Positions 11,717 to 63,950 are shown, counted from the stretch's first letter. The stretch is DNA of 64,000 nt from Alphaproteobacteria bacterium (GCA_031555055.1 JAVBUT010000004.1:13741-77740); one strand, 5' to 3'. Notes: generated by a model not told the origin, from the letters alone. Numbers and translations are program-made.

Positions 11717-12118
11717 ATGATTTTAATTAGTCACGAAATTAAATGTTCGCCAATCCATGGTATTGGGCTATTTACGAAACAAAATGTAAAAATGGGTGAA
11801 TTGATTGCACGGGCCAGCCCACAATTGGATGTTGATGTATCTGCACTAATTTTTGATTCTTTGGATTCAAAAGAACAGGCAGAAATATTATACTGGGGTT
11901 TTTATGATCCGTTGCGGGATACGTATCATGTTGCCTTTGACAAGATCAAATTTTTAAATCATTCGCAAAATGGTAATGTAACTGAAAATATGAAAACATA
12001 TGATATTTTTGCAGTGCGGGATATAAAAAGCGGTGAAGAGTTAACGCAAAATTATCTGGAATTTGAAGGCGCTGAAGATTTATTAAGCCGTGGGATTGTT
12101 GAATCTGATGATTGTTAA
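11717..12118 (+). CDS. SET-domain protein (putative protein lysine methyltransferase)
   Basis: 133 aa. GIGLFTKQNVKMGELI (GxG region), FLNHSQNGNV (a variant of NHSCxPN) and IKSGEELTQNY (the ELxxxY motif). Confidence 0.75.
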   Translation: MILISHEIKCSPIHGIGLFTKQNVKMGELIARASPQLDVDVSALIFDSLDSKEQAEILYWGFYDPLRDTYHVAFDKIKFLNHSQNGNVTENMKTYDIFAVRDIKSGEELTQNYLEFEGAEDLLSRGIVESDDC

Positions 12119-14244: not shown

Positions 14245-14432
14245 TTTTTCTCCTTGGGATGAGAAAACTTTAGCATAGGTTTTTGTAATTGCCAGATTTA
14301 TTTGACTTTTTGGGTTGGGTCAGATATAATAATCGGGTATCAGAATTAACATCCACGGCGGAGAGCCGAATTTTTTCCATAATTTACGAACATCGCGTGC
14401 TTTCCGCTGTGAAAAGTTTGAAGGGAAGTCAG

Positions 14433-15710
14433 ATGAAAAATTTAAGCGCAGGTATAGATTTCGGAACAACTAATTCAGTCGCCGGATTGTCCAATGATGG
14501 CGATGTGTCTTTGATAGCATTGGAACAAAAACATATTGATATTCCAACTGCGATATTCTTTTCAAAATCCAAAAACAATAAAAAAATACTATTTGGTCGC
14601 CAGGCAGTTACCAATTATCTGAATAATGATGATGAAGAAAATCGTTTGATGCGGTCGTTGAAGCGTGTGCTGGGGACGCCCCTAATGAAATCGGGGACGA
14701 CTGTGTACGGTCAAAGTATGATGTTCAAAGATATAATAAATCTGTTCATGGTTCATATTAAAAACAAAATTGATATGGCGGCCGCCGCCGATGTTGAAAA
14801 TATTGTTATGGGTCGGCCAGTACATTTTCGTGATGGTGATCCATTGGGTGACGCGGCAGCGCAAAATGAGTTGGGCCAGATTGCAAAAAGTGCAGGGTTT
14901 AAAAACGTCTTGTTCCAATACGAGCCGGTTGCGGCCGCATTCGCGCACGAGGCGAATCTGCAATCAGAAACACTTGCCGCAGTAATTGATATTGGTGGCG
15001 GTACAAGTGACTTTACAATTCTGCGTTTGGGTGGTGCGAACCGCAATCGTGCCGACCGAACAGATGATATTCTGGCGAATTCTGGTGTGCGAATTGGTGG
15101 GAATGATTTTGATAAACAATTGGCACTGGATTCATTTATGCCGGAATTTGGGATGGGTACAACACATCGTGGCGCGCATGGTAAAATTCTGAACGTACCA
15201 AATACGCACTATTTTGATTTGTCAGAATGGTCGAAAATTAATTCACTGTATACGTATAAAAATATAAACATGGTGCGCGGGATTTTGATTGAGTCGTTGG
15301 CGCCCGAAAAATACGGACGATTGCTGGAAATTATAACGCATGGATTTGGACACAATATTTTGGGACGGGTCGAAGATGCAAAAATCAATTTAACTGAACG
15401 CGATAAAGTTGAAACAGTTCTGAGCTTTATGACGGACGCGCCAAGGATTATAACAACGCGTGATAAGTTCGAAAAATCAATCGCCAGCGCCACCGAAAAA
15501 GTTCGCAAAACCGCCGCCGAATGTGCGGCCATGGCCGGGGTAAATCCAACCGATGTCCAATTAATAATTCTGACCGGTGGTTCAACCGAAATTCCATATG
15601 TCTGCGAAACACTGTGCGGTGTTTTTCCAAATGCAAAAGTTTCAGGCGACAACAAACTGTCCAGTGTTGGTATGGGCCTGGCATTTGATGCATCGCGACG
15701 ATTTTTATGA
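14433..15710 (+). CDS. Hsp70-family protein, YegD-like (short, no substrate-lid domain)
   Basis: Start at MKNLSAGIDFGTTNS (ATG 14433). Actin-like ATPase motifs are present: IDFGTTNS, VIDIGGGTSDF, ILTGGSTEIP. At 425 aa it is too short for DnaK. Confidence 0.85.
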   Translation: MKNLSAGIDFGTTNSVAGLSNDGDVSLIALEQKHIDIPTAIFFSKSKNNKKILFGRQAVTNYLNNDDEENRLMRSLKRVLGTPLMKSGTTVYGQSMMFKDIINLFMVHIKNKIDMAAAADVENIVMGRPVHFRDGDPLGDAAAQNELGQIAKSAGFKNVLFQYEPVAAAFAHEANLQSETLAAVIDIGGGTSDFTILRLGGANRNRADRTDDILANSGVRIGGNDFDKQLALDSFMPEFGMGTTHRGAHGKILNVPNTHYFDLSEWSKINSLYTYKNINMVRGILIESLAPEKYGRLLEIITHGFGHNILGRVEDAKINLTERDKVETVLSFMTDAPRIITTRDKFEKSIASATEKVRKTAAECAAMAGVNPTDVQLIILTGGSTEIPYVCETLCGVFPNAKVSGDNKLSSVGMGLAFDASRRFL

Positions 15711-15814
15711 TGCGGTATTAAAAGATTCCTATCGCGGATTCGTTTGTGTTTTTTTATAGTTGCATTGGTATGCTATTTTTTTTAGAATTACACGCGATAG
15801 GGAATCAAAGTCTT

Positions 15815-18800
15815 ATGAGAGAAGGTCGTTTTATCCTTGGTTTTTTTGGGTTGGTTTTTCTTACAGTGCTGCCGTCGGTCGCGCTGGCTGTGGATTGTGC
15901 CGCTGGTAAATATTGGGACGGTACAGGATGCGCCACATGCACCAGGGGATATTATTGCACCGGTTTTTCGAATGTGACGGACCCAGCCGTTGGGCATGGA
16001 TTGACCGAATGCCCGCCGGATTATACCGATGGGGACCCCGGCGCGACAAACAAAAACCAATGCATGATAACCACGCCGCCCGGATACTATACCATGGGGT
16101 ATGGATTGCTGGTATGTTTTGAATTGGGTTATAACTGTTTGGGCAACATACGTGTGAAGTGGGGCAGTGCCGGCGGATATGCGTTTTGTCCGGTAAAGGA
16201 ATATTCGGACGTGTCGGGCGCAGTAGCATGCAAAATGTGTCCCGAAGGTTATCAAAGCAGTACCACAACCGGTAAAAAAACAATAAACCTGTGCCAGGCA
16301 AACACTGTGGCCGGAAAGTATATTGCAACTCCTTTTGATATAGAAGGGACCACATGTCCCGAGGGATCGTACTGCACTGGTGGGGTCAAGGTTAATTATG
16401 GTGAAATCGGTGGAATATCCGCATGTCCCGAAGGATATGCCGATGGCGCCAGCGGTCGAACCGCAATCGGACAATGCGCGATGAAATTGCCCGAGGGGTA
16501 CTATATAAAAACGGCCAAAGATTCTGTGCCGACAAAGTGCACCGAACCTGGATATTCTTGTCCGGGCAGCGTGGTGAATTATAGTTCGGTCGGGGGCCAG
16601 GTTATATGTTCCGGCGCCACTTATTCCGGTATACCCGGCGCGTCGGCTTGTTCGAATTGTCCGGACGGCTATAACGCCAACACCACCGCTGGCAAGGGCC
16701 TGATAACAGATTGCCAAATAAACGTTACGGCCGGAAAATATGTCGCCGATGCGACCAGTTCAACATTGACTGTTTGTCCGGCGGGATATTACTGTCCTGT
16801 GAATAAATTAAATTATGGCAGTGCGAATACGCCGACAGCATGTCCGTCCGGCTATACTTTCGGAACGCCAGGCGCGGATGATGTCAGCAAGTGCAGCATC
16901 AAAACATCCGCCGGAAAATACATAGCGACCGCAAACTCAACCACAGAGACCAATTGTCCCGCCGGCAGCTATTGCCCGCCAGCAACAGTTAACTATGGCG
17001 GCACCGGTTCTATACTCGCGTGTCCTGGCGACTATAACGATGGCGCGGCAGGCCTGTCGAACATCACCGATTGCAAAATACAGACAAGCAATGGAAAATA
17101 TATCGCGGCGTCAAACGATCTGACTGAAACCGACTGTCCGGCCGGGTATTATTGCCAAAGCCAGTCGATACAATTCGGTGGTTTCAGCACGCTGACGCCA
17201 TGTACAGGCGCAACGTATTCGTCATCCGGGGCCGCATCGTGCGCGGTTTGTCCAACAGGGTATGTCGCAAATACAGACGAAGGTAAAACAGCCATATCAC
17301 AATGCCAATTTCAAACAACGTACGGGTATATGATTGAAAATCCCGGTGATACGTTTGAAACTGCGTGTGCGGTTGCGTCTGACTGTCCGGCCACGCTGGT
17401 CAACTATGGGCATTCCAACAGCGTCACCCAGTGTACAGGCGGATTTTACCTGTCCGGTGGAAATTGCGTTTCGTGTCCGACGGGATACAAGGATGAAGAT
17501 TCTGTAAATAAAACAGCAATAACGCAATGTGCGAAAAAAGTAACCGCGGGGTATTATATTAGGACCGCAAATTCTGATGTGGAAACGATTTGTCCTGCGA
17601 ACAGCTATTGTCCTGGTGCGCTGATCACGTACGGCAGCACAGGTGGGATAATAACATGCCCGACAGGATATACCAGTGGCACAACCGGTTCTGTGACTAT
17701 AAACGATTGCAAGCTAAAAACCAATGGTGGAAAATATGTTCAAGTGGCGGAATCGTCCACGACTGTAAATTGTCCGGCAGGATATTACTGTCCGTCGGAA
17801 TTTGTAAATTATGGCAGTGTAAATACTCCTACGCCTTGTCCGGCTGGCGAATATTCCACACTTATGGCGGCGACTTGCATTTCGTGTCCCACAGGGTACG
17901 AAGCGGGACCGCCAATAAAAACAGTTCAGACGGATTGCCAGATGAACGTCAGCCCCGGTTTTTATATTTTGAATGCCAAGGATTCTGCGCCAACACCGTG
18001 TCCGGTCGGCGAATATTGTTCAGGGGGATTGATTGCGTACAACAGCAAGGGCGGTAAGCTGGCCTGTACGGGCGCAACATATTCCGATACTTTGGGTGCG
18101 TCCGAATGCAAGCTTTGTCCGACAAGATATAATTCGAACGTGACTGCCGGCAAGACATCAATCAACCAATGTCAAACAGTGGCCAATGCCGGAAAGTATA
18201 TCGCAAACGCGGGTGATACAGTCGAAACCCTGTGTACAGCCGGTCATTATTGTTCCGGCGGTCTAATAAATTTTGGCAATGTCGGAATAATCAACCAATG
18301 CATGGGTGCGACATATTCGGCCGGTGGCGCCACGAATTGCACAGTGTGTCCAACCGGGTATACGGCAAATATAGACCCAGGCAAGACATCGATTGAACAA
18401 TGTCAAATTTTGGTTAACGCAACGAAATATATCGGCACGCCATACAGCGCGACCCAAACCAATTGTCCCGCCGGCAGCTATTGTCCTTTTTATGGACCTT
18501 TGAATTATGGCAGTGTCATTATGCCGACAAAATGCACTGGTGCCACCTTCTCGTTGGGCGGAACCATGGAATGTGAAGAATGCGCGGTTGGATACAGGGA
18601 TGATCTTAGCGAGGGTAAGGTATCGTATACGGGCTGTAAAAAAATCACGACCCCCGGCGAATATATACAGGCTGCACGCGATCTGGTCGGAACACCGTGT
18701 CCAGCGGGAAAATATTGCCCGTCGGCAACGGTCAGTTTTAACAGTACCAACAGCTATATGGGTTGTCCTTTGGGCTATCTGGATGGTCCGATCGGTGCCG

Positions 18801-19186
18801 GGGCGATCACTGATTGCCAGAAACAGACAAATCCGGGAACGTATATTACAACACCCAGAAGTGTCACACTGACAAACTGTGGTGTTGGATATTATTGTCC
18901 CGCAACCTTGATAAATTATGAGAGCATAGGATCGCGATTCGCGTGCCCCGAAGGTTCAACCACGCGTGGAACCGGACTGGGCGCGGACGAGCCTGGCGAC
19001 TGTGGCCACGTGCTGAGAATTGGTGCAAACAAGCTGTATCTGCGCAGTGATAAAAAAACATCGCCATCGTTGAATCTGAATTATAACGGGACGATATATT
19101 ACGGGAACGCGACCACTGATCAAAGAAACGGCTTGAAACTGAATTCCGGTGGCGTGACATATTCGATCTATGACGATGGCATGTGA
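15815..19186 (+). CDS. Giant Cys-rich modular surface or secreted protein (about 15 tandem CPxGYYC-type modules)
   Basis: Signal peptide MREGRFILGFFGLVFLTVLPSVALAVDC. A reiterated module of about 55-75 aa reads T.aGKYI....t.CPaGyYCpg..vnYGs.gg...CP.GY..g..G...I.dC. A distinct Cys-free C-terminal domain of about 70 aa follows. Confidence 0.85.
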   Translation: MREGRFILGFFGLVFLTVLPSVALAVDCAAGKYWDGTGCATCTRGYYCTGFSNVTDPAVGHGLTECPPDYTDGDPGATNKNQCMITTPPGYYTMGYGLLVCFELGYNCLGNIRVKWGSAGGYAFCPVKEYSDVSGAVACKMCPEGYQSSTTTGKKTINLCQANTVAGKYIATPFDIEGTTCPEGSYCTGGVKVNYGEIGGISACPEGYADGASGRTAIGQCAMKLPEGYYIKTAKDSVPTKCTEPGYSCPGSVVNYSSVGGQVICSGATYSGIPGASACSNCPDGYNANTTAGKGLITDCQINVTAGKYVADATSSTLTVCPAGYYCPVNKLNYGSANTPTACPSGYTFGTPGADDVSKCSIKTSAGKYIATANSTTETNCPAGSYCPPATVNYGGTGSILACPGDYNDGAAGLSNITDCKIQTSNGKYIAASNDLTETDCPAGYYCQSQSIQFGGFSTLTPCTGATYSSSGAASCAVCPTGYVANTDEGKTAISQCQFQTTYGYMIENPGDTFETACAVASDCPATLVNYGHSNSVTQCTGGFYLSGGNCVSCPTGYKDEDSVNKTAITQCAKKVTAGYYIRTANSDVETICPANSYCPGALITYGSTGGIITCPTGYTSGTTGSVTINDCKLKTNGGKYVQVAESSTTVNCPAGYYCPSEFVNYGSVNTPTPCPAGEYSTLMAATCISCPTGYEAGPPIKTVQTDCQMNVSPGFYILNAKDSAPTPCPVGEYCSGGLIAYNSKGGKLACTGATYSDTLGASECKLCPTRYNSNVTAGKTSINQCQTVANAGKYIANAGDTVETLCTAGHYCSGGLINFGNVGIINQCMGATYSAGGATNCTVCPTGYTANIDPGKTSIEQCQILVNATKYIGTPYSATQTNCPAGSYCPFYGPLNYGSVIMPTKCTGATFSLGGTMECEECAVGYRDDLSEGKVSYTGCKKITTPGEYIQAARDLVGTPCPAGKYCPSATVSFNSTNSYMGCPLGYLDGPIGAGAITDCQKQTNPGTYITTPRSVTLTNCGVGYYCPATLINYESIGSRFACPEGSTTRGTGLGADEPGDCGHVLRIGANKLYLRSDKKTSPSLNLNYNGTIYYGNATTDQRNGLKLNSGGVTYSIYDDGM

Positions 19187-19210
19187 TTTGCGACACAATA
19201 ACAACACATA

Positions 19211-19240
19211 AAAAACGACGGTAGAATCCGTCGTTTTTTG
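19211..19240. terminator. Bidirectional terminator
   Basis: aaaaaCGACGGtagaatCCGTCGtttttt lies between convergent genes. Confidence 0.85.
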
Positions 19241-19253
19241 TTTCGTTTAATTT

Positions 19254-20000
19254 CTAGAACCGATATGACAGGCCGATTTTCAGCATCGGAATCGCGCGCA
19301 ATTTTGACACTTTGCTGGCGATCCAGTCGGATTCTTTTTGCATGTCTGCAGGGTCTATATAGAAAGCGTGCGGACCATACAGCGCCAATGATACACTGGG
19401 GTAAGAGTTTACCAAAAAGCCCAGGTCGGTCGTTATGTACAGACTGCGCCATACATTCATGTCAACACCGATGCCCAAGTATGGTGCAAAATTTTTGCTG
19501 AATCCGACGTTTCCGACCATGCTGAATCCTGGCGGCACGACATAGGTGTTGTCGCCGATCGTAACAGTTCCGCCAATGCCGACATCGCCGTGCATTTCGG
19601 AATGGTTTTTATATATTCCACCGGTTATGCGAAATACGCGTTCAAATGGGTACACGTCGATAACAGCCCCATAGGAATGATGCGAAAAATGCGCGTCACC
19701 CTGGGAAAAATCCAAGGATGTGTCGGTTTTTTTGTGAATTATGTCGTTGATCGCAGATTGCGGTATCTTTAGCGAATTCAGATAATTGAAATCGATTCTG
19801 ATCGCCAGCGTGTTCAGAACATTGTTCTTGTTATCGTAAAACGGACGATATCCGACGGACGCATTGATGCCGGATGTCGCGCCGACCCCCATGTTGACAA
19901 TGACGCCGCGCAGACTTTTTTCCGTGTCGGAAAAGTCCCAGGCATGCAAGGTTGTCGGAACCGCCATGGCGGCGATAAACAGTAAAGGTATTCTTTTCAT
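19254..20000 (-). CDS. Outer-membrane beta-barrel protein
   Basis: Signal peptide MKRIPLLFIAAMAVPTTLHA, beta-strand periodicity, and a C-terminal ...KIGLSYRF. Confidence 0.8.
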   Translation of the reverse strand: MKRIPLLFIAAMAVPTTLHAWDFSDTEKSLRGVIVNMGVGATSGINASVGYRPFYDNKNNVLNTLAIRIDFNYLNSLKIPQSAINDIIHKKTDTSLDFSQGDAHFSHHSYGAVIDVYPFERVFRITGGIYKNHSEMHGDVGIGGTVTIGDNTYVVPPGFSMVGNVGFSKNFAPYLGIGVDMNVWRSLYITTDLGFLVNSYPSVSLALYGPHAFYIDPADMQKESDWIASKVSKLRAIPMLKIGLSYRF

Positions 20001-22530: not shown

Positions 22531-23817
22531 CTATTCGCACACTGCGACATATGGTGCCAGTGATTTGTCCGGATCAATGCGGCCGACACCGCAATCCAGG
22601 CAATTAAATTTTCTGTTTTGAGAATGTGTTTTATCCAACGGTATTTCATAATCGGCAACCGCGGATACGCGCGCCGCATACGTCAGACTGGGGAATCCGA
22701 AATACATTGCGCGTGATGATCCTGTGCATGCGGACGCGTTCGGATAACACTTTGGGTCGGTTGTTTTGGCCGGGTCCGGCACACACATCACAGCGCAAGT
22801 TTCCTGGTCCAGTACCGCTTGTTCGCAATCTGTGCACAATGTTGCCGATATTCGCAATGTTGCGCCTATGCGCCCATGTTCGGCACCACGCGACGTCGGG
22901 GTGCATTTTGATGGCATTCTGGTCGCGACCGGGTCTTCGACACATTCCCACACCAAGTCGTTGTAATTCAGTCGTGCGATCATGCCGGCAGGGCAACTGC
23001 GTTCTTGGAATGGGTCGATACACTGCCATATGTCGTCGACCATTACGGCGGACTGTTTCGATCCGCACAGCGGACGGCGCGCGTTGTCCGCGACACATTC
23101 GCCCAGGTCCGAATCCCATATCTTGTCCCCGGCACAGTTGATTTTTGTGTTGTTCGGCACGCACTGCCACTTGCCGAACCGATAGGCTTTGATCATGCCG
23201 CCGCCGCACGTTATGTCGGCGACAACAGGCGCCGCAAAGTCTGTTTCGACATCCGGGATTTCATACATGGTCATATATACCAGCTGGCCGTTGCGCAGTT
23301 TTGCTTCTTTGATAACACCAGCGGGTATCGCGCGTTTGCCGGCGGGGCCGCCACCCAGAATTACGTCATCCAAAAATATGCCAAAAGTACCCGCTGCGGG
23401 ATAATACTTTTCAATAATTTCCAGCATATTGTTATATTCGCCATTCGGCAGAGGGGCTGTTGTAGTGACAACAAAACTGTATTCTGGTTTTCGTTTATTC
23501 GTAACCTCGCACTTTACGATTGCGCGGGATTCATTCATGCATACCATATACGTGGCGATTTCATATTGTTGCAGGCAAATATCTTCGAATATATAGTCCT
23601 TGATCGCGGCGGTTTGGGCCATGGCGGTGCATTCCGCAACGGATCGCAAATCGGCGCGCGCGATGGCGGTGTCTTGTTCGATATGTGCTATGTTCTGGCT
23701 GGGGCTGTCCATAAAATAATAGCCCGCCATAAACAAAAACACCAAAACCATGATAAAAATATTCACTTCTCTCTTGCCCTTTGGCAAAAGAATAGCTAAT
23801 ATGGCTGGGAAGTTCAA
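22531..23817 (-). CDS. Membrane-anchored Cys-rich protein, unknown function
   Basis: 428-aa ORF with an N-terminal hydrophobic helix (IFIMVLVFLFMAGYYF; the alternative start M23 is at 23751). The C-terminal half is rich in spaced Cys (CGGG..WQC..INCAGD..GEC..LCGS..WQC..SCPAG..WEC). Confidence 0.65.
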   Translation of the reverse strand: MNFPAILAILLPKGKREVNIFIMVLVFLFMAGYYFMDSPSQNIAHIEQDTAIARADLRSVAECTAMAQTAAIKDYIFEDICLQQYEIATYMVCMNESRAIVKCEVTNKRKPEYSFVVTTTAPLPNGEYNNMLEIIEKYYPAAGTFGIFLDDVILGGGPAGKRAIPAGVIKEAKLRNGQLVYMTMYEIPDVETDFAAPVVADITCGGGMIKAYRFGKWQCVPNNTKINCAGDKIWDSDLGECVADNARRPLCGSKQSAVMVDDIWQCIDPFQERSCPAGMIARLNYNDLVWECVEDPVATRMPSKCTPTSRGAEHGRIGATLRISATLCTDCEQAVLDQETCAVMCVPDPAKTTDPKCYPNASACTGSSRAMYFGFPSLTYAARVSAVADYEIPLDKTHSQNRKFNCLDCGVGRIDPDKSLAPYVAVCE

Positions 23818-43875: not shown

Positions 43876-44069
43876 AAAATTCAAACCGGGTTTATCCCGG
43901 TTTTAATTTTTGAAATACCCAGATTGAGCATGAGAACCGACCGGTTCGACAAGGAGTCCAAGAGCGCAACGCGCGATTGGGAGTTCGCGTACGCGAACGA
44001 TACAACTGCCGCGATGCCCCCAAAGGGCGAGCGAATCCGGCTTTGCCCACCGAAGCTTTGGCGAAGGTG

Positions 44070-44084
44070 GGTTGGGGCTGCCAA
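44070..44084 (+). repeat. Orphan copy of the tRNA-Glu 3' end
   Basis: ggttggggctgccaa is identical to 43862..43876 and is followed by its own hairpin plus T-run (atgcccgcaattcgtgggtattttt). Confidence 0.7.
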
Positions 44085-44363
44085 GCATTAAATGCCCGCA
44101 ATTCGTGGGTATTTTTATTGTAATTTCAATAAGTTATTATGGTTATAAAAGTTTATTTTTATATATGCATTTTTAGACCAAAAACCATGATTATAACACT
44201 ACTTTACAATCATTAATGAATTGATTGTTCTATATTTTATATAGGGTTCTAAAAAACGGTCCGGGGTATCGTTATTGCCTCTCGATTTATCCTTATTTAT
44301 GTTTTTTTATTTAAAGCCCCTAAACATTGACAACGTATTAATCTGTGTTAAAATAACTCCAAA

Positions 44364-45470
44364 ATGACAGTCAAATCAAAATACGTTCCAGAAATAAAAT
44401 TCTATCAATCCCCAGATGCGGGAGTATTTTTTATATTACGAGAACTTTGTCATAGAAATATCGGCGCTTTTCATTTAACAAGCGTTCCTATTCAAATGAT
44501 TCAAAAATTTCCACATAAAATTATTGCATCATATTTTAAAGACACTATGCGCCGCTGCAATTATATGAAACTGGATCAAGTCTATTCATTAATGAATATC
44601 TGGAAAGATCCTGTATTTTTTAATGAAATGTATGCACAAAGTGTGGATACTGGTGTCTCATTACAAAATTCAAACTTGGACAAAGAAACAAAACAATCAT
44701 TTGATAAATTAAGCAAGCTTTATAAACGCGATTTATGGGTTCCAAATTTAAAGACAACGCAAAAGCTTGCCTCTGTCCTGGATACAGAAATAAATAGCAA
44801 TGACAGATTCTTTTCAAAGATGTCAGAGTTTTATGATTATAATATCAATAATCTATCTAGTATGGGCATTGCAGTAATTCCAGCAAACAACAGTGTTACC
44901 GGCGGATCAATAGCCACCCATACAATTGATCCCAAGACCAAAAATTCAAAGATGATTTTAACTTATAATTATGATGCTGACATCATTATTAATAAATTAT
45001 TCAGCACGATAGTTCACGAAATAGGACATCATTATTATGCCAAACTTGGTGACTTTGATATAATAAATTTAAAGCCTGGAGAAAAAGAGCTTTGCGAGAT
45101 TATTAAAGACCCTAATTATGCCTACTTGTATATAAACGAAGCGTTTTCGGTCGCATGGCAAAATATGTTCCATAATTATTTATGCGCGGTAGATAAAATA
45201 AAAGAAAAAACTAACTATTTACATTCGTATGGCATAGGAAAAATGGATCATAATAACCCTGCAATGAGTATGGTGGCTCCTATGATGTTTAATGGCAGCA
45301 TTATCACATATCTTTCCGAATACATCTTTTATGATATGATGAATTCATATCAAAAGAATAAGAAACCAAATCGTGATACATGCGCTGTAAATGCCGTAGA
45401 AAAATTATATAAACAAATTCCAAATATAGCTGAACAATTTGCAAATACATTTGCAAGAGATTCTAAATAA
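44364..45470 (+). CDS. Hypothetical protein with HExxH (HEIGHH) zinc-metalloprotease-like motif, AT-rich
   Basis: 368-aa ORF containing TIVHEIGHHYY. TTGACA-16-TAAAAT lies about 30 nt upstream. Composition is clearly AT-richer than the core genes. Confidence 0.55.
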   Translation: MTVKSKYVPEIKFYQSPDAGVFFILRELCHRNIGAFHLTSVPIQMIQKFPHKIIASYFKDTMRRCNYMKLDQVYSLMNIWKDPVFFNEMYAQSVDTGVSLQNSNLDKETKQSFDKLSKLYKRDLWVPNLKTTQKLASVLDTEINSNDRFFSKMSEFYDYNINNLSSMGIAVIPANNSVTGGSIATHTIDPKTKNSKMILTYNYDADIIINKLFSTIVHEIGHHYYAKLGDFDIINLKPGEKELCEIIKDPNYAYLYINEAFSVAWQNMFHNYLCAVDKIKEKTNYLHSYGIGKMDHNNPAMSMVAPMMFNGSIITYLSEYIFYDMMNSYQKNKKPNRDTCAVNAVEKLYKQIPNIAEQFANTFARDSK

Positions 45471-45638
45471 GATTATTAAATCTTAGCATATAATCGTATT
45501 CATTTTTTATCCGGAAAAATCATACACAGATTCTCGGCAATGGCGCAGATTTCTGGTAAAAAGTTTCTAACAAAATCGCTCTGGGTTGCCAAAAATTAAA
45601 CCGACCATTTGGTCGGTTTTTTGTTTGATTTGGAATTT

Positions 45639-45890
45639 TTAATAACAATCGCATGATTCCAGCCAGGCGCGATTGGCTGCGGCTTCATCATTTTCTGGCG
45701 CCGGTGCATCGCGTCTGGGTGTGGCACGATCGGTGGCTTTCTTTTCAGTATCAGAATCATCGGTGACAACGACGACTGTTTCAGTGACTTCGACCATCTC
45801 GGTTTTTGTGGTTTTTTGTTCTGGTTTGTTTCTGTCACATGCACTGATGACCAAGACAGCGACGGCCAATACGATAATTTGGATTTTCAT
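45639..45890 (-). CDS. Small lipoprotein (83 aa)
   Basis: MKIQIIVLAVAVLVISACDRN is a signal peptide with a lipobox. A terminator lies downstream at 45598..45623. Confidence 0.65.
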   Translation of the reverse strand: MKIQIIVLAVAVLVISACDRNKPEQKTTKTEMVEVTETVVVVTDDSDTEKKATDRATPRRDAPAPENDEAAANRAWLESCDCY

Positions 45891-45970
45891 GATCTCTCTC
45901 CCTTTTTTTTACTATGATTATATCGGATTCTATAAGGGCAGGGTATGGGAAGGTATTCCAGATTATGAAT

Positions 45971-45997
45971 GTAGGGGCAGATATCATCTGCCCCTAC
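45971..45997. repeat. Perfect 12-bp palindromic hairpin of the GTAGGGGC...GCCCCTAC family
   Basis: gtaggggcagat-atc-atctgcccctac, about 40 nt downstream of the restriction endonuclease gene stop. Confidence 0.85.
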
Positions 45998-46036
45998 ATT
46001 GTTTATTGGATAAAAAATAGTTAGAATTGAAATTAT

Positions 46037-46648
46037 CTATTGAGATATCCCGATAATAACCAAAGGGACCGCCGGTGTATTTCTTCCCTGTCTTATAACG
46101 TTATATACTTCGCCTTCGTAATAAGCAACACCGGACGACATATTTTGAGAAAGCTCTTTCATCGGTAAGATTTCAATTCCTACGTCAATTTTATTTCCAA
46201 TATAAAAAGCCATATGTTTTACAAAAAGGTCATATGCCACGAAAGAATACTTTCCAAACTGAACTTCTATAGCAACTCGCTCTTTAACAAAATCTGTTTG
46301 ATTATACGTAAATAGTGCGGTTTTTCCAGCGGCTTCGATAATTTCTTTCTGTTGTTTTGCATCTAATGTAAGAGTTTCTCGGGCTAGTTTTACATCAGCA
46401 GTTACATAATACTGGGTTCTGGATTCCTCCCACCCTTTTTCTTCCAATTGTTTTTTGAACTCATTATTCATATCAATAGGACTAAATAATATTTTTCCTG
46501 CTTTTGTTTTCTCTTTTGAAATTTTTGTTTTGCATTTTTCAGCATCGATATTTTCAATAATTGCTGTAATTTCTTTCCAAATATGAGGCAAATGTACTTG
46601 TATGTACTCCATTCCATTTAAATGCGAATATATTTCTTTTATTTTCAT
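46037..46648 (-). CDS. Type II restriction endonuclease, BglII/BstYI-like
   Basis: ERVAIEVQFGKYSFVAYDLFVKHMAF and ILPMKELSQNMSSGVAYYEG resemble BglII ...TLVEVQFSNYPFLLNN... and ...ITKGHMFPASNSSLYYEQ as I recall them. The N-terminal IWKEITAIIENI and KILFSPIDMNNEFKKQLEEKGW resemble BglII LWKEIEETLLKM and SLIFDPVGTNQYIKDELVPKHW. The preferred start MKIKEIY gives a TAATG overlap with the methylase stop; an alternative start is at 46675. Confidence 0.7.
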   Translation of the reverse strand: MKIKEIYSHLNGMEYIQVHLPHIWKEITAIIENIDAEKCKTKISKEKTKAGKILFSPIDMNNEFKKQLEEKGWEESRTQYYVTADVKLARETLTLDAKQQKEIIEAAGKTALFTYNQTDFVKERVAIEVQFGKYSFVAYDLFVKHMAFYIGNKIDVGIEILPMKELSQNMSSGVAYYEGEVYNVIRQGRNTPAVPLVIIGISQ

Positions 46649-47580
46649 TAAGCTGTCCTTTTTTCTTTTATCCATTCAATGGGAAACTTGGCTGCGGTTT
46701 CATTTTTTGGGGTATGTATTGGTGTTCCGATTTTCCTTGTTTTTAGCTTTCCGTCAAGTTCTGCTTTAATTCTTTCTTTGCCTATATTGATATATTCCTG
46801 TATTTTATCCACGCCAAATGCTTTTCTATTATGGCGGACAGCGGCAATTAATGATGAAGCAACGCCGGCATATGGATCATATACAATATCATTTTCATTT
46901 GTTAAGGCGAGAACACAGCGCTCAACCAATTCGACGGGAAATTGACAGGGGTGAGGTGTTTTTTCTGGATGATTTGATTTTACATTTGGAATTTCCCAAC
47001 ATTCAGAAGCCCATTCGTTCGACATAAATTCCCAAAAATCAGATGGATTTTTGCCATTTGGATTACCAGACAATTGTCCCTTTTTGTGTCCCTTGTAATG
47101 TTTTTTTCCAGGATACTTTGATGGGATTCTAACGCTATCTAAATTAAATGTATAATTATCTGATTTTGTGAACCATAATATGGTTTCGTACCTTCCGGAG
47201 AATCGCTTGCTGGCATGGAGCCCATGGCCAAAGTGCCAGATCATTCTGTTCCTTAGCTTCATCCCTAGGTCCTTGAATATTTCATAATAATAAATATCCA
47301 ATGGAAACACTTCTCCTTTATCAATATAATTTCCCACTTGCCAACAAATACTTCCCGTGGGGGACAATACCCGAATTAGCTCTTTTATAAGCTTTTCTTG
47401 CGTTTTTAGATATTCTTGAATTGAAACTCGCGTTTCATAAGATTTCCCGATATTATATGGAGGTGATGTGATAATTAGTTCAACAGAGTTGGACGGTAGC
47501 TTTTTTGTAAACTCCAAAGAGTCGTTTTTTTCTAAAACGATAATAGAAGAAGGTTTGTATTTATTATCAACGGATTTCAT
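46648..47580 (-). CDS. DNA methyltransferase, beta class (N4-cytosine or N6-adenine), SPPY motif
   Basis: Catalytic motif IV IITSPPYNIGKSY precedes the AdoMet motif I IVYDPYAGVASSLIAA (beta-class order). 310 aa. Confidence 0.88.
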   Translation of the reverse strand: MKSVDNKYKPSSIIVLEKNDSLEFTKKLPSNSVELIITSPPYNIGKSYETRVSIQEYLKTQEKLIKELIRVLSPTGSICWQVGNYIDKGEVFPLDIYYYEIFKDLGMKLRNRMIWHFGHGLHASKRFSGRYETILWFTKSDNYTFNLDSVRIPSKYPGKKHYKGHKKGQLSGNPNGKNPSDFWEFMSNEWASECWEIPNVKSNHPEKTPHPCQFPVELVERCVLALTNENDIVYDPYAGVASSLIAAVRHNRKAFGVDKIQEYINIGKERIKAELDGKLKTRKIGTPIHTPKNETAAKFPIEWIKEKRTA

Positions 47581-47770
47581 TTAATCTCTCTGCTTTTTGC
47601 GCATTATAAGCTTTATCTTTGCAAAAATAAAGAGCTAAGTAAGGTCTAAATTTTATATCTTTTGTCGCTTCGTCCGGGGTGACAAAACAGAACCTGTGCG
47701 GGTTCGTCGTCCCGAATATATGCTCGTTCAGAAATAAAAAAATGACCCTGGCGGATCATTTTCTTATTTC

Positions 47771-47847
47771 TGGCGGGATTGACGGGACTCGAACCCGCGG
47801 CCTTCTGCGTGACAGGCAGACGCTCTAACCAGCTGAGCTACAACCCC
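47771..47847 (-). tRNA. tRNA-Asp (anticodon GUC)
   Basis: Minus strand: GGGGTTGTAGCTCAGCTGGTTAGAGC..., anticodon arm TCTGC-CTGTCAC-GCAGA, T loop TTCGAGT, encoded CCA. Confidence 0.93.
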
Positions 47848-47868
47848 AGAACTGTTACCAGCCCGCCA

Positions 47869-47897
47869 ATTCTATACTGTGTCGTTTGTAAAATCAA
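47869..47897 (-). promoter_or_regulatory. Sigma70-type promoter of tRNA-Asp
   Basis: Minus strand: TTGATT, 17-nt spacer, TAGAAT, about 21 nt upstream of the tRNA 5' end. Confidence 0.65.
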
Positions 47898-48117
47898 GCG
47901 GTTTTTTGGGTATGGTGTTGTTTTTTATTTTACCCTTTCGCGCCCCTGGGGCAAAGGGGAATTGATGACGTTAGTAGGGGCGCATATTTGCGCCCTGGGC
48001 TTATGCACAATACGCCCATACAATTTTGCCCCCCCACCGCAAACGTGGTGAGGTGCGATGGAGCGAAGTTGTAATAATTTCATAGATTTTTAAAAGATAA
48101 TGGATTATAATCGGTGG

Positions 48118-56275: not shown

Positions 56276-57253
56276 TTAAACAACTTCTGTAACCGCACGC
56301 AGGGACCCGTCGCGCGATAACTGTACCACATGCAATTTCTTTTTCATTTCTGTGATCAGCTCGCTGCGATTATATGCCGGTTGGGTATGCAGAATACGGT
56401 CTGCGAATGCGCTGAACGCGGCCTCGGCACTTTCGGCGTGAATGGTTGTATAGAAATGATCGTGGCCCGTGCCCATCATTTCCCACAGGCTGGACGCATT
56501 GTCCGTTGAAACTTCGCCGCCGATAATAACGTCAGGCGTCATGCGCACCACCAAGTCCAGTAAACGCGCGTAATTGAAATCGTTCGTCTGTTCCGTGCGC
56601 GACAGCACAAAGTGCACGCGGTTCGCCTGGGGGACGTTGATTTCACGCGCGTCTTCGACGGTGATTACGCGGCTGTTCTGGTCGATCAGCGTCAGCATAT
56701 GGTTCAAAAAAGTTGTTTTCCCAGTCGATGTTGCGCCGCTGATCAAAATTGGACTGCCGTCATTAATCGCCTGCATCAGGTTTTCATACGGATCATCGGG
56801 GCGCTTTTTACCACGCGGTTTGACTTTTAATAATTTTTTGCCCTTGGCCAGATGATATTTGCCAAAGTCGGAAATGGTCGCGCCGCCGCCGCGAATGTTC
56901 AGCGCCACGCCACCGGTGATGTCACGGTCATCGTACTGTACGTTCGGGCCCGCGATTGCCGTAAATCGGTGATTGCCCGGCAAAGTCGCGTAAACCACAG
57001 GCATGCCGTGAATCGGATCAAACGGGCGTTCGTAAATATTCGCAACCGTATGGATTAAATCAACCAAGTATTGTTTGGATAAAATTTCGGAATTATACGC
57101 AACCCATGGCACGCGCGCACCGTGCAGTCGCATCCAGACTTCGCCCGCGTGGTTTATCGCGATTTCTTCGACAAAGCTGGGCTTGTAAAATTCTTCCAGC
57201 GGGCGCAATAAAGATTCTAGAACAACGTTGCTCATATCGTTATATTCTATCAT
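56276..57253 (-). CDS. VirB11-like type IV secretion ATPase (orphan)
   Basis: Walker A ILISGATSTGKTTFLN, RVITVEDAREI, Asp/His boxes ...VRMTPDVIIGGEV... and GTGHDHFYTTIHAESA. 325 aa. No other vir/trb genes are in the window. Confidence 0.8.
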   Translation of the reverse strand: MIEYNDMSNVVLESLLRPLEEFYKPSFVEEIAINHAGEVWMRLHGARVPWVAYNSEILSKQYLVDLIHTVANIYERPFDPIHGMPVVYATLPGNHRFTAIAGPNVQYDDRDITGGVALNIRGGGATISDFGKYHLAKGKKLLKVKPRGKKRPDDPYENLMQAINDGSPILISGATSTGKTTFLNHMLTLIDQNSRVITVEDAREINVPQANRVHFVLSRTEQTNDFNYARLLDLVVRMTPDVIIGGEVSTDNASSLWEMMGTGHDHFYTTIHAESAEAAFSAFADRILHTQPAYNRSELITEMKKKLHVVQLSRDGSLRAVTEVV

Positions 57254-58753: not shown

Positions 58754-59112
58754 GTGAAATAAAAATATATTAAATAATTTCCTGTAATTTTTACATACGG
58801 TATTGCTTATGGATAATGTCAATTAACCTATTTTTGATTTTTGTGTTTGCAAAACTTTTCAATAATGTTATCCTGTGTTTGAATCCAAGGAGATGTGGGT
58901 TCGGGACCTTAGAAAAGTCCATGTTCAGGACAACACCTGTCGGTGTTGCGATCTCGTTTTTAGTGTTTAAGTACACACCCGACTTTGGTCGGGGCTCTGT
59001 TGGTTATACAACAGGGTTCGCCCAAAAGCCAACGGGGGCATCTGAACATGCTTTTTCTAAAACCCCGACCGCCAAATTCTTTGGCGGTTTTCTAGTTACA
59101 CGGAGTTTAGAG

Positions 59113-59847
59113 ATGAAGAGAACACTATCTGCAATTTTTGTGGCCGCGGCGTTGTTTGGCGTGCATTTTGACGGGGCTTTTGGCTGGCCATGCCCGGAAC
59201 GCATGTGTTCGTATGAGGAAGTGATTGAGAGATGTGGTGGTTGGTACCCTGATGTGGAATGTGCAATAACGGATATGCTTGAACCTGGCTGTGAAGCGCG
59301 ATACGATGCTTGTAGATGTTATAATAATCTTGATCACATATTTATCTATGGAAAAGGGTGCGTATGCAGGGAGGGTAAATACAGTATATATACTGGTGGA
59401 GAGTGTTATGATTGTCCTGATGGCGGTATGGCTGATTCGGTAAATAATATACGCGGTGTAAGTGGATGTTACAAAACGGGGATCATGCATTCCGATTCAG
59501 CGCATGCAACAGTCGGTCAAATATGTTACAATACTGGTTTTGATAACAATCCTGGTTCTTATTCAAACTGTACTGTTAGTTATATTATTTCTTGTGATCC
59601 TGGGTATTATCGTCCCACGCCAACCAGTCTATCGTGTGTTCCGGTTGGTGGAAATTATTACAGCGTATCGCCATTATCGCGCGCGCTATGCCCGACATAT
59701 ACAAATCCATCCGGTGGTCAGTCATACGGTATTACAACCGGATCCGGAACCGGTGCGGATGCAATAACAGATTGTGCGATACCGCCAACAGAAGTTTTTA
59801 ATGATGGCGTTGGGACTTACAATTATCCGGGATGTTGGTATTCGTAA
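59113..59847 (+). CDS. Secreted Cys-rich protein related in style to the 1123-aa modular protein
   Basis: Start MKRTLSAIFVAAALFGVHFDGAFG (ATG 59113) after GGAG. Dense spaced Cys, with CDPGYYRPTPTSLSC and GADAITDC echoing the CPxGYYC / I.DC elements of 15815..19186. Confidence 0.7.
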   Translation: MKRTLSAIFVAAALFGVHFDGAFGWPCPERMCSYEEVIERCGGWYPDVECAITDMLEPGCEARYDACRCYNNLDHIFIYGKGCVCREGKYSIYTGGECYDCPDGGMADSVNNIRGVSGCYKTGIMHSDSAHATVGQICYNTGFDNNPGSYSNCTVSYIISCDPGYYRPTPTSLSCVPVGGNYYSVSPLSRALCPTYTNPSGGQSYGITTGSGTGADAITDCAIPPTEVFNDGVGTYNYPGCWYS

Positions 59848-63281: not shown

Positions 63282-63344
63282 TATCATAAAACTGGACTTT
63301 TTATACATATTTGATACAATTTGCATCGTAATAAAGGGCGCAAA

Positions 63345-63950
63345 ATGGTCTTGAAAAACAAGCTGGATATTAAAAGTCAGGTCGTGCTGAACAAGGCGGA
63401 AGAACAGATCAGCAAACAAAAAGCGAAACTGTTATTTGACAGCGGAAAAATTGATAAAATCAAAGTTGGAACTTTTTCAGGGCTGGCCCAGATTCATAAA
63501 TTTTTATTCGGTGATATTTATGATTTTGCCGGTAAAATCCGCGATGTGAATATTTCCAAAGGGAATTTTCGTTTCGCGCCTTTGATGTATTTGGAACAAT
63601 CGCTGAAGCATATTGATAAAATGCCGCATGGTACATTTGATCAAATTATTGAAAAATATGTCGAAATGAATATCGCGCACCCGTTCCGCGAAGGCAATGG
63701 TCGCGCGACACGCATATGGCTTGATTTAATATTAAAAAAAGAATTAAAAAAAGTTGTCGATTGGGACAAGATTGATAAGGCCGATTACTTGTCCGCGATG
63801 GAGCGCAGTGTTGTAAAAGATGTAGAGATCAAGCAATTGCTAAAAGGTGCGCTGACCGGAAAAATAAACGAACGTGCAGTGTTTATGAAAGGTATAGACG
63901 TCAGCTATTACTATGAAGGTTACGACGAATTTAAAACCGCTGATTTGTAA
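63345..63950 (+). CDS. fic: Fic-domain protein (AMPylase family), class-III-like
   Basis: The Fic motif HPFREGNGRATR (HxFx[DE]GNGRxxR). The C-terminal ...DVSYYYEGYDEF fits the inhibitory [ST]xxxE[GN] motif in a C-terminal helix. ATG 63345 after AAAGGG. Confidence 0.85.
   Translation: MVLKNKLDIKSQVVLNKAEEQISKQKAKLLFDSGKIDKIKVGTFSGLAQIHKFLFGDIYDFAGKIRDVNISKGNFRFAPLMYLEQSLKHIDKMPHGTFDQIIEKYVEMNIAHPFREGNGRATRIWLDLILKKELKKVVDWDKIDKADYLSAMERSVVKDVEIKQLLKGALTGKINERAVFMKGIDVSYYYEGYDEFKTADL

Follow-up and report, generated by a model that had tools for sequence, protein, structure and literature searches.

Candidatus Enterousia and related Alphaproteobacteria of the order Rs-D84 are bacteria of unknown lifestyle, widespread in the guts of humans, poultry and ruminants (PMC12306168). 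Members of the order have genomes of ~0.7-1 Mb with no tricarboxylic acid cycle, respiratory chain or standard uptake transporters, and possible interaction factors have been named only as 'hypothetical membrane-bound proteins' (PMC12306168). Surface proteins made of Cys-rich repeats are a known kind, and modules resembling those of tumour necrosis factor receptors (TNFR) and ephrin receptors are usually held to be eukaryotic. Here we describe a protein encoded in a stretch of 64,000 nucleotides from an Alphaproteobacteria bacterium (GCA_031555055.1, JAVBUT010000004.1:13741-77740), referred to as the window. The gene, at 15815..19186 (+), encodes an array of Cys-rich modules that ends in an undescribed C-terminal domain, the tail. 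Its analysis reveals, first, that the TNFR/Ephrin_rec_like scaffold has a large bacterial branch, which current Pfam misses almost wholly. The second and more important novelty is the C-terminal domain itself, the defining feature of a family of giant exported proteins that is multi-copy and restricted to one clade. No description of this tail-bearing family was found in searches of the literature on bacterial Ephrin_rec_like domains, Enterousia and Cys-rich giant proteins.

The gene is an intact open reading frame (ORF) of 1123 codons plus stop. Public databases already hold its product as an unannotated hypothetical protein (NCBI entry P0001, 100% identity). The ATG at 15815 is the start in register with that of the closest orthologue, P0002, which comes from a 27.8-kb Logan contig; a GTG at 15746, upstream of this ATG, is likewise open. 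Residues 1-25 (15815..15889) show, when assessed by eye, the features of a Sec-type signal peptide, MREGRFILGFFGLVFLTVLPSVALA|VDC, in which a basic n-region leads into a hydrophobic core of 17 residues and A-x-A stands ahead of the predicted cut ALA|VD. The context of the cut, VALA|VDC, is no lipobox. P0002 has AFA|VDC at the equivalent position, even though the signal peptide is the fastest-evolving segment of the protein, with 32% identity between the two. An earlier interpretation made from the DNA alone (the sequence-only reading) had proposed a secreted protein of 1123 residues, and both the length and the export signal agree with what we find.

Homologues of the window protein differ widely in length and share one ending sequence. 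The sequence-only reading took a Cys-free stretch of about 70 residues as the mere end of the protein. Such a stretch is present, with a length of 60 residues (1064-1123, 19004..19183), and this tail is the most informative part of the protein. Together with the last half-module it forms a conserved C-terminal domain of 80 residues (1044-1123, 18944..19183) with the consensus C..GLTTIG.G.GADE..DCGR.L..G..K.YLRS.KKTTPSLNV.I.G.T.YGNM......L.....G.TTYSVYDDS. An 80-position profile (A2) was built with the window protein as the first sequence and 21 other members, to which it is 35-73% identical. When run against 1.84 billion representative proteins, the profile detected 608 clusters at E <= 1e-3, 401 at E <= 1e-10 and 56 at E <= 1e-30. 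Among the best 150 of the 608 clusters, the proteins are 109-4949 residues long, and in most the match lies at or a few residues from the C terminus; one subfamily has a further 130-290 residues beyond it. The full-length tail-bearing members among these 150 have signal-peptide-like N termini. The window protein, with the 80-residue unit at its C terminus and a signal peptide at its N terminus, belongs to the family so defined. The shortest protein, P0155 (109 residues), is a signal peptide directly fused to the conserved C-terminal domain with nothing else, and is either a minimal family member or the remnant of an array deletion.

The 80-residue unit has no Pfam or NCBIfam match, and its profile has no match among PDB sequences (best E = 0.2, noise). 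An AlphaFold model of the last module and the tail, based on 33 sequences, has a predicted local distance difference test (pLDDT) of 93.8 and a predicted TM-score of 0.82. In the model the tail consists of six short β-strands that form three hairpins. Because its strands span only 4-8 residues, a hydrophobic helix is lacking and the last residues are ...DDGM, the tail is predicted to be a small soluble domain, neither a membrane barrel nor a transmembrane anchor. The three hairpins show a weak periodicity of ~20 residues, in register (hhalign P = 0.0013 and 0.046). A Foldseek search of PDB and BFVD with the module-plus-tail model returned no structural neighbour for the tail. The same model matched a gut-phage protein, A0A8S5NPH6, with a Foldseek probability of 0.99 and a nonsignificant E of 0.18; tblastn searches with the tail and a module pair against 50,697 phage genomes gave no match.

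A scan for the tail with one genome per GTDB species yielded 128 loci, of which the best 80 were retained; taxonomy throughout is that of metagenome-assembled genome (MAG) labels. These 80 loci belong almost entirely to uncultured gut Alphaproteobacteria, to which the tail appears confined in species-representative genomes. They carry the labels Ca. Enterousia, 'uncultured Rickettsiales' or 'Alphaproteobacteria bacterium' and come from human, chicken, horse-type and ruminant samples. Many of the genomes have two or three tail loci, and tandem pairs occur at four loci. Three loci (L062, L063 and L064) are in bins labelled Muribaculaceae; since their gene order matches that of alphaproteobacterial loci and the proteins are 70-90% identical, they are probably mis-binned in the public assemblies. 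The label of a 3-kb contig assigned to Bacteroides fragilis (L038) is doubtful: its single ORF shares 85% identity with the one at L035, a locus in a MAG of Pseudomonadota.

The window itself comes, as far as gene order and gene content indicate, from a diderm relative of the Enterousia/Rs-D84 clade. It shares a six-gene syntenic block with the MAG locus L074. Of the four proteins compared within this block, the one of GyrA/ParC type (Pfam DNA_topoisoIV and DNA_gyraseA_C) has 85% identity, against 46-54% for the remaining three. The genes of the window further include those for LpxI, an LptE-like protein and β-barrel proteins of the outer membrane, which means that the cell has an outer membrane for an exported protein to cross.

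What precedes the tail varies. The passengers include Cys-rich arrays, Flg_new/InlB B-repeats and Big_2 domains, as well as one match to the F5/8 type C domain that is below threshold. The tail, in turn, is the most conserved part of these proteins across genera, with 45-70% identity. The Cys-rich array is also found without it. A search with the window protein gave 268 homologues; an alignment of 120 of them was not meaningful column by column owing to the repeats, and was used only for fetching sequences. Array homologues in other phyla, including NCBI-labelled Bacilli, lack the tail (P0012, P0036, P0087, P0005 and P0008) and carry at the N terminus either a prepilin-type GFTLIE segment or a membrane anchor. 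That other anchors take the place of the tail implies that the array is a passenger using different anchors in different envelopes. The array family is abundant in gut metagenomes. The suggestion that such proteins are rare in bacteria is not borne out, given 268 homologues and 608 tail-bearing clusters, and the accompanying expectation of host-associated species is, the hosts being gut bacteria.

The array comprises 15 in-register modules over residues 28-1063, when each unit is cut after its terminal Cys; about 15 had been counted before. Cys makes up 78 of the 1123 residues (6.9%), Gly 13%, Thr 12% and Tyr 7%. There is one N-terminal cap (56 residues, 6 Cys), six short modules (60-62 residues, 4 Cys) and eight long modules (75-79 residues, 6 Cys), in the order cap-L-S-L-S-S-L-L-S-L-L-L-L-S-S. 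The successive Cys-to-Cys spacings are 21-6-16/17-17 in the short units and 21-6-16-13/14-3-18 in the long ones, so that a long module is a short module with an additional C-x13-C-x2-C element. The sequence-only reading had described an alternation of two module types; the order is not strictly alternating, and what it called a variant corresponds to the later half of a long module (C-x13-C-x2-C-x17/18-C).

All modules were assigned by Cys spacing. The cap is module 1 (residues 28-83, 15896..16063), and the same cap is present in P0002, P0003 and P0004. The long modules are module 2 (residues 84-160, 16064..16294), module 4 (222-300, 16478..16714), module 7 (421-497, 17075..17305), module 8 (498-572, 17306..17530), module 10 (633-708, 17711..17938), module 11 (709-786, 17939..18172), module 12 (787-863, 18173..18403) and module 13 (864-941, 18404..18637). 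Module 8 is degenerate, with CAVASDC replacing CPxGxYC. The short modules are module 3 (161-221, 16295..16477), module 5 (301-360, 16715..16894), module 6 (361-420, 16895..17074), module 9 (573-632, 17531..17710), module 14 (942-1001, 18638..18817) and module 15 (1002-1063, 18818..19003). The second half of module 15 contains the family-wide motif C..G.TT.G.G.GADE..DC, with which the conserved C-terminal domain begins.

The modules share 37-43% amino acid identity on average. At the DNA level the copies have diverged, as had been noted: Tandem Repeats Finder detected no array, and the sole recurring motif is a 24-nt stretch coding for CPxGxYC, present in 13 copies with 66-96% identity at spacings of 180, 231 or 234 nt. 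In variant modules of homologues, loss of the Cys pair of CPxGxYC goes hand in hand with a newly acquired pair, whose members stand 4 and 17 residues into the module. This correlated loss and gain suggests that each such pair probably forms one local disulfide.

Two further Cys-rich proteins are encoded in the window. The one at 58816..59847 (+) is small and secreted, with a probable start at an internal MKRTLSAIF..., and resembles the modules in style, including a 'GSGTGADAITDC' motif; it has no tail and no Pfam or NCBIfam match, and module hidden Markov models (HMMs) built from the 1123-residue protein do not detect it. The other, at 22531..23817 (-), has 428 residues with an N-terminal hydrophobic segment and a C-terminal half that is Cys-rich in a different pattern, and likewise has no Pfam or NCBIfam match.

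A Pfam scan of the whole 1123-residue protein gave no matches at E <= 1, and an NCBIfam scan gave nothing useful. When pieces were scanned in isolation, residues 28-160 scored 24.2 bits against PF07699 (Ephrin_rec_like, formerly GCC2_GCC3), just above the gathering score of 23.1, with the best stretch at residues 98-131 of that piece, within module 2. Four further pieces remained below the threshold (10.7-18.8 bits). These matches fall mostly on the second half of long modules, and there were weak matches of isolated pieces to NCD3G, TNFR_ELAPOR1_6th, TNFR_c6 and Lustrin_cystein. The spacing typical of PF07699, 13/14-3-18 with CP.G.Y elements, recurs in all eight long modules and, in a variant form, in the cap. 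Among the 120 best homologues, 10 carry a precomputed PF07699 annotation.

The short and long modules 6 and 7 (residues 361-497) were modelled together by AlphaFold2 from a 16-sequence alignment, giving short β-hairpins with a pLDDT of 95.0. A Foldseek search of the PDB with this model returned only Cys-rich extracellular rods: a Chlamydomonas mastigoneme protein (E = 0.03, probability 0.93), the Cys-rich domain (CRD) of CaSR, ELAPOR1, death receptor 6, EphB6 and thyroglobulin. With the model of the last module and tail, the EphA2 CRD, TNFR1 and CD40 matched the module half. The top matches all belong to the Cys-rich-domain class, with probabilities of up to 0.95, E values from 0.03 to ~2 and TM-scores of ~0.3. 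The models, with pLDDT values of 94-95 and stacks of β-hairpins whose nearest solved folds are the Cys-rich rods named above, make a fold class of the TNFR/ephrin-receptor-type disulfide ladder likely. Strict membership in PF07699 is borderline, because the Foldseek E values all exceed 0.01 and a search of PDB sequences with the module profile is empty at E <= 1; only a resemblance at superfamily level is safe. The likeness to ephrin-receptor or GCC2_GCC3 repeats put forward in the sequence-only reading is supported in part, by the Cys/Gly/Tyr pattern, the one piece above the PF07699 cut-off and the neighbours of the models; it is not supported by the protein scanned as a whole, which has no Pfam match, or by any significant Foldseek E value.

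Over evolutionary time the scaffold has been kept. P0002 is 65% identical to the window protein, with 1119 of the 1123 codons aligned and the same 15 modules in one-to-one correspondence. All 78 Cys are retained, together with 90% of Tyr and 88% of Gly. The nonsynonymous divergence (pN) is 0.23 and the synonymous divergence (pS) 0.71; per module, the ratio dN/dS is only roughly 0.05-0.25, as synonymous sites are saturated. This pattern points to purifying selection on a scaffold with variable loops and not to gene-wide diversifying selection. Of the two explanations offered before for the divergence between copies, great age or diversifying selection, the first stands and the second finds no sign here. 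Length varies at the level of strains: one Enterousia lineage has 43 cluster representatives of 898-1421 residues that are identical in their first 36 and last 9 residues and differ by block indels of 108-380 residues. Such length variation is typical of exposed repeat proteins.

The protein is very probably an exported, disulfide-rich rod of TNFR-like modules that belongs to the tail-bearing family. From the gene, its signal-peptide features, the module array with its predicted fold class, and the conserved C-terminal domain with its distribution and modular use, we infer disulfide formation, passage across the outer membrane, retention at the surface through the tail and an adhesive function. 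The window protein would be exported by the Sec route and fold oxidatively in the periplasm into a long rigid rod of 15 disulfide-laddered TNFR/ephrin-receptor-type modules. It would then pass the outer membrane by some route to become a fibre or adhesin displayed on the surface. The last 80 residues, a Gly/Asp-rich half-module and three β-hairpins predicted to form a compact soluble domain, are the constant part of a large paralogous family. They would act as a sorting or anchoring module that is recognised by the envelope or export machinery of the cell and keeps the variable passenger on the surface. The main argument for this role is that a constant terminal domain joined to variable passengers is the pattern of known sorting or anchor domains. 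It is strengthened because other phyla substitute other anchors and because the mature protein contains no other anchoring feature. Adhesion is suggested by the InlB B-repeats, Big_2 and possible discoidin domain found beside the tail, by the strain-level length variation and by the dependent lifestyle of the bacteria that carry the family. For this full reading, a rod or adhesin at the surface with the tail as its anchor or sorting module, we see the chances as evenly balanced.

Several observations weigh against it. The neighbours of the family in 82 loci and the window include no conserved gene for a transporter, a sortase-like enzyme or a receptor. A hydrophobic segment, a lipobox and a terminal aromatic residue are all missing from the tail, which ends in ...YDDGM, and it could equally serve oligomerisation or ligand binding. 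Every Foldseek match is statistically weak, the best having E = 0.03. The crossing of the outer membrane by a disulfide-bonded rod of 1100 residues is left unexplained.

The alternative that survives best, though we consider it unlikely, is that the tail is an oligomerisation domain, similar to a foldon, or the distal tip of the fibre that binds a ligand, in which case attachment to the cell, if any, would occur otherwise. A compact soluble β domain at the end of a rod fits such a role, as do the weak three-fold hairpin periodicity and the failure to find an envelope partner gene in the 82 loci. Hairpin repeats that bind carbohydrate are hinted at by a marginal match (E = 0.32) to the part of a streptococcal glucosyltransferase that binds glucan. 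A tip, however, would be expected to vary with its target, whereas the tail is the part that varies least between genera, and the mature protein offers no alternative candidate for an anchor.

The sequence-only reading had also raised a host mimic, which in its fullest form would be a freely secreted, soluble decoy of TNFR/Eph-type receptors with host ligands as its targets. A resemblance to eukaryotic receptor ectodomains does exist in the fold class and the borderline PF07699 matches, and the organisms live in animal guts. Yet the likeness is that of a generic disulfide scaffold; the module profile finds no PDB sequence up to E = 1; the arrays have from 15 to more than 60 modules and change in length between strains, whereas receptor ectodomains have 3-6 CRDs; and the tail also carries unrelated bacterial adhesin repeats. 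The same reading had cited a SET and a Fic gene as a context of host interaction. Both genes are real. The SET-domain gene (11717..12118 (+), Pfam E = 3.5e-10) lies 3.7 kb and four genes away, and the gene with the Fic motif HPFREGNGR (63321..63950 (+)) lies 44 kb away; neither is associated with the family elsewhere, and they are unlinked to it. We regard a mimic as improbable.

Comparably improbable is a self-assembling surface coat, S-layer-like or filament-forming in the manner of the algal mastigoneme, in place of an adhesin. The best structural match of the module pair is indeed the Chlamydomonas mastigoneme filament protein, and the multi-copy family occupies a large share of genomes of ~1 Mb. 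That match is weak and concerns the module fold only, however, and there is no sign of lateral assembly; the Flg_new/InlB B-repeat, Big_2 and sub-threshold F5/8 type C domains of the relatives are more typical of adhesins.

A classical C-terminal secretion device, be it a type V autotransporter, a type I adhesin of the RTX kind or a substrate of the Slam/type XI route, is suggested by the terminal position of the conserved domain, the Gly/Asp-rich G.G.GADE motif ahead of the tail and the Slam-like protein encoded next to the closest orthologue and near one other member, but is very improbable, since type V proteins end in a C-terminal barrel of ~250-300 residues or a YadA-type anchor of 70-100 residues with an aromatic end, whereas the tail has 60 residues in six strands of 4-8 residues, the end ...YDDGM and no Pfam or NCBIfam autotransporter or YadA_anchor match; type I export is contradicted by a clear Sec signal peptide conserved across the family, by 78 Cys and by a single G.G.GADE motif in place of an array of GGxGxD nonapeptides, with no ABC transporter, membrane fusion protein or TolC genes recurrent nearby in the 82 loci and the window; and Slam/type XI substrates would call for a lipobox, which VALA|VDC is not, and an 8-stranded barrel, which six short strands are not.

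The two Slam/SlipAM-like outer-membrane proteins (type XI component) were found at L001 (9750..11093 (-)), where the gene abuts that of P0002, and at L078 (7321..8709 (+)), near a family member. The L078 gene follows that of its own 665-residue lipoprotein with an LAAC lipobox. With such genes at 2 of 82 loci, and one of them paired with its own lipoprotein, we judge the link coincidental. A polymorphic toxin was likewise rejected, as it is the C terminus that stays constant and the gene in the window has no immunity-like gene after it on the same strand.

Enterousia-type genomes give several genes of up to 15 kb each to the tail-bearing family, which makes it the obvious candidate for partner attachment in Rs-D84 bacteria. 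A tentative extension, which we think more likely to fail than to hold, is that gut Alphaproteobacteria with reduced genomes (order Rs-D84, with Ca. Enterousia and relatives) have a surface-display or secretion route of their own, so far undescribed, for which the 80-residue domain serves as address tag. This route would load onto the cell a large and fast-changing repertoire of giant disulfide-rich fibres that form the main physical interface of these metabolically dependent bacteria with a partner, either the host mucosa or another microbe. In practical terms, the searchable C-terminal domain gives a handle on the whole surface repertoire, a tag for a possible new sorting pathway and a marker for contig assignment, as which it has already revealed the mis-binned 'Muribaculaceae' contigs.

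The neighbourhood of the family was surveyed by clustering 1152 ORFs from the 82 loci and the window. The recurrent same-strand neighbours downstream are secA (37 of 82 loci), dnaE (25 of 82) and rsmH (23 of 82). At 25 loci a conserved ORF of ~73 residues, read from the other strand, separates the tail-bearing gene from secA (e.g. L007 10296..10514 (-) and L040 10312..10533 (-)), and grpE-dnaK precedes the tail-bearing gene in a few. These recurrent neighbours look like inherited synteny. None of them, neither secA, dnaE, rsmH, the 73-residue ORF nor grpE-dnaK, is found around the gene in the window.

Upstream of the gene in the window lie lgt, a nagZ-like glycoside hydrolase family 3 gene, the SET gene, a tRNA gene, a GNAT gene, two NUDIX genes and a YegD-like gene of the Hsp70 family. 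The last of these, with a likely start at 14430, is directly upstream on the same strand (14289..15710 (+)), as previously described, and scores 258 bits against NF008673/PRK11678, below the cut-off of 331. A functional tie was considered and rejected: the gene is missing beside P0002 and P0003, and the Hsp70 proteins near other members are canonical DnaK. At five Enterousia-type loci (L007, L011, L012, L015 and L040) a canonical dnaK is upstream of the family member, preceded by an ORF of ~207 residues that is probably grpE. The presence of an Hsp70-family gene in two forms ahead of family genes is probably a coincidence.

The gap between the YegD-like gene and 15815 is 104 nt long and AT-rich. 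Inside it there is only one weak promoter-like element, TTGCAT-17 nt-TAGAAT (15760..15788 (+)), which was recognised by eye, agrees at 8 of 12 positions and falls under the threshold of a promoter scan; its assignment is tentative. Downstream, a strong bidirectional intrinsic terminator with a 14-bp stem and T-runs on both strands (19208..19241) is shared with a convergent gene at 19254..20000 (-). This gene encodes a CarO-like outer-membrane β-barrel of 248 residues with a signal peptide and the C-terminal sequence ...GLSYRF; the match to the CarO NCBIfam model is weak (31 bits). It was rejected as a partner, not being found beside homologues in the 82 other loci. An AMP-binding enzyme is encoded farther downstream.

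Elsewhere in the window, a low-GC island at 44000..48000 (35-37% against ~47% elsewhere) contains genes for an N6/N4 DNA methylase (46648..47580 (-)) and for a restriction endonuclease resembling BglII (46037..46675 (-)), next to a tRNA gene (47774-47847). The only secretion-machinery-like gene seen in the window encodes a T2SSE-family ATPase-like protein, of type II/IV secretion or pilus type (56276..57253 (-)).

Among described systems, the modules are closest to PF07699 and the wider TNFR-like CRDs (TNFR_c6, NCD3G and TNFR_ELAPOR1). The second half of the long modules, C-x13-C-x2-CP.GY-x17/18-C, is alike, and so is the predicted stack of disulfide-pinned β-hairpins. In contrast, the super-module of 60 or 77 residues contains a GKYI hairpin and a CPxGxYC loop outside the Pfam model, the window protein comes from a bacterium, and the arrays of the receptors are much shorter. 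The Chlamydomonas mastigoneme protein Mst1 (PDB codes 8wa2, 9b4h and 8tx1) is the best Foldseek match, with probabilities of 0.84-0.93, and is also a very long extracellular rod of many small Cys-rich modules. It differs in being a eukaryotic flagellar hair protein, and the match amounts to E values of 0.03-0.12, 18-21% identity and a TM-score of ~0.3, without evidence of homology beyond the module scaffold.

The variant surface proteins (VSPs) of Giardia, of the protist kind named in the sequence-only reading, are Cys-rich modular surface proteins of a gut dweller as well. At their C terminus VSPs carry a transmembrane helix and a CRGKA tail, and they are rich in CXXC motifs, whereas the window protein has one CXXC per long module and no transmembrane segment. 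For the tail, the nearest analogue in function only is the C-terminal domain of type IX secretion in Bacteroidota: here too, a small β domain of 60-80 residues ends many otherwise unrelated, signal-peptide-bearing and often giant surface proteins of one lineage. The tail differs from it in having no Pfam or NCBIfam Por-domain match and no structural match, its hosts are Alphaproteobacteria and not Bacteroidota, and no PorU/PorV-like genes were seen.

True homologues are found among the giant InlB B-repeat/Flg_new (PF09479) surface proteins of gut bacteria, some of which NCBI names 'InlB B-repeat-containing protein'. Unlike these relatives, the window protein is purely an array of Cys-rich modules and a tail, without Flg_new, whereas many of them join Flg_new repeats to the same Cys-rich modules and the same tail.

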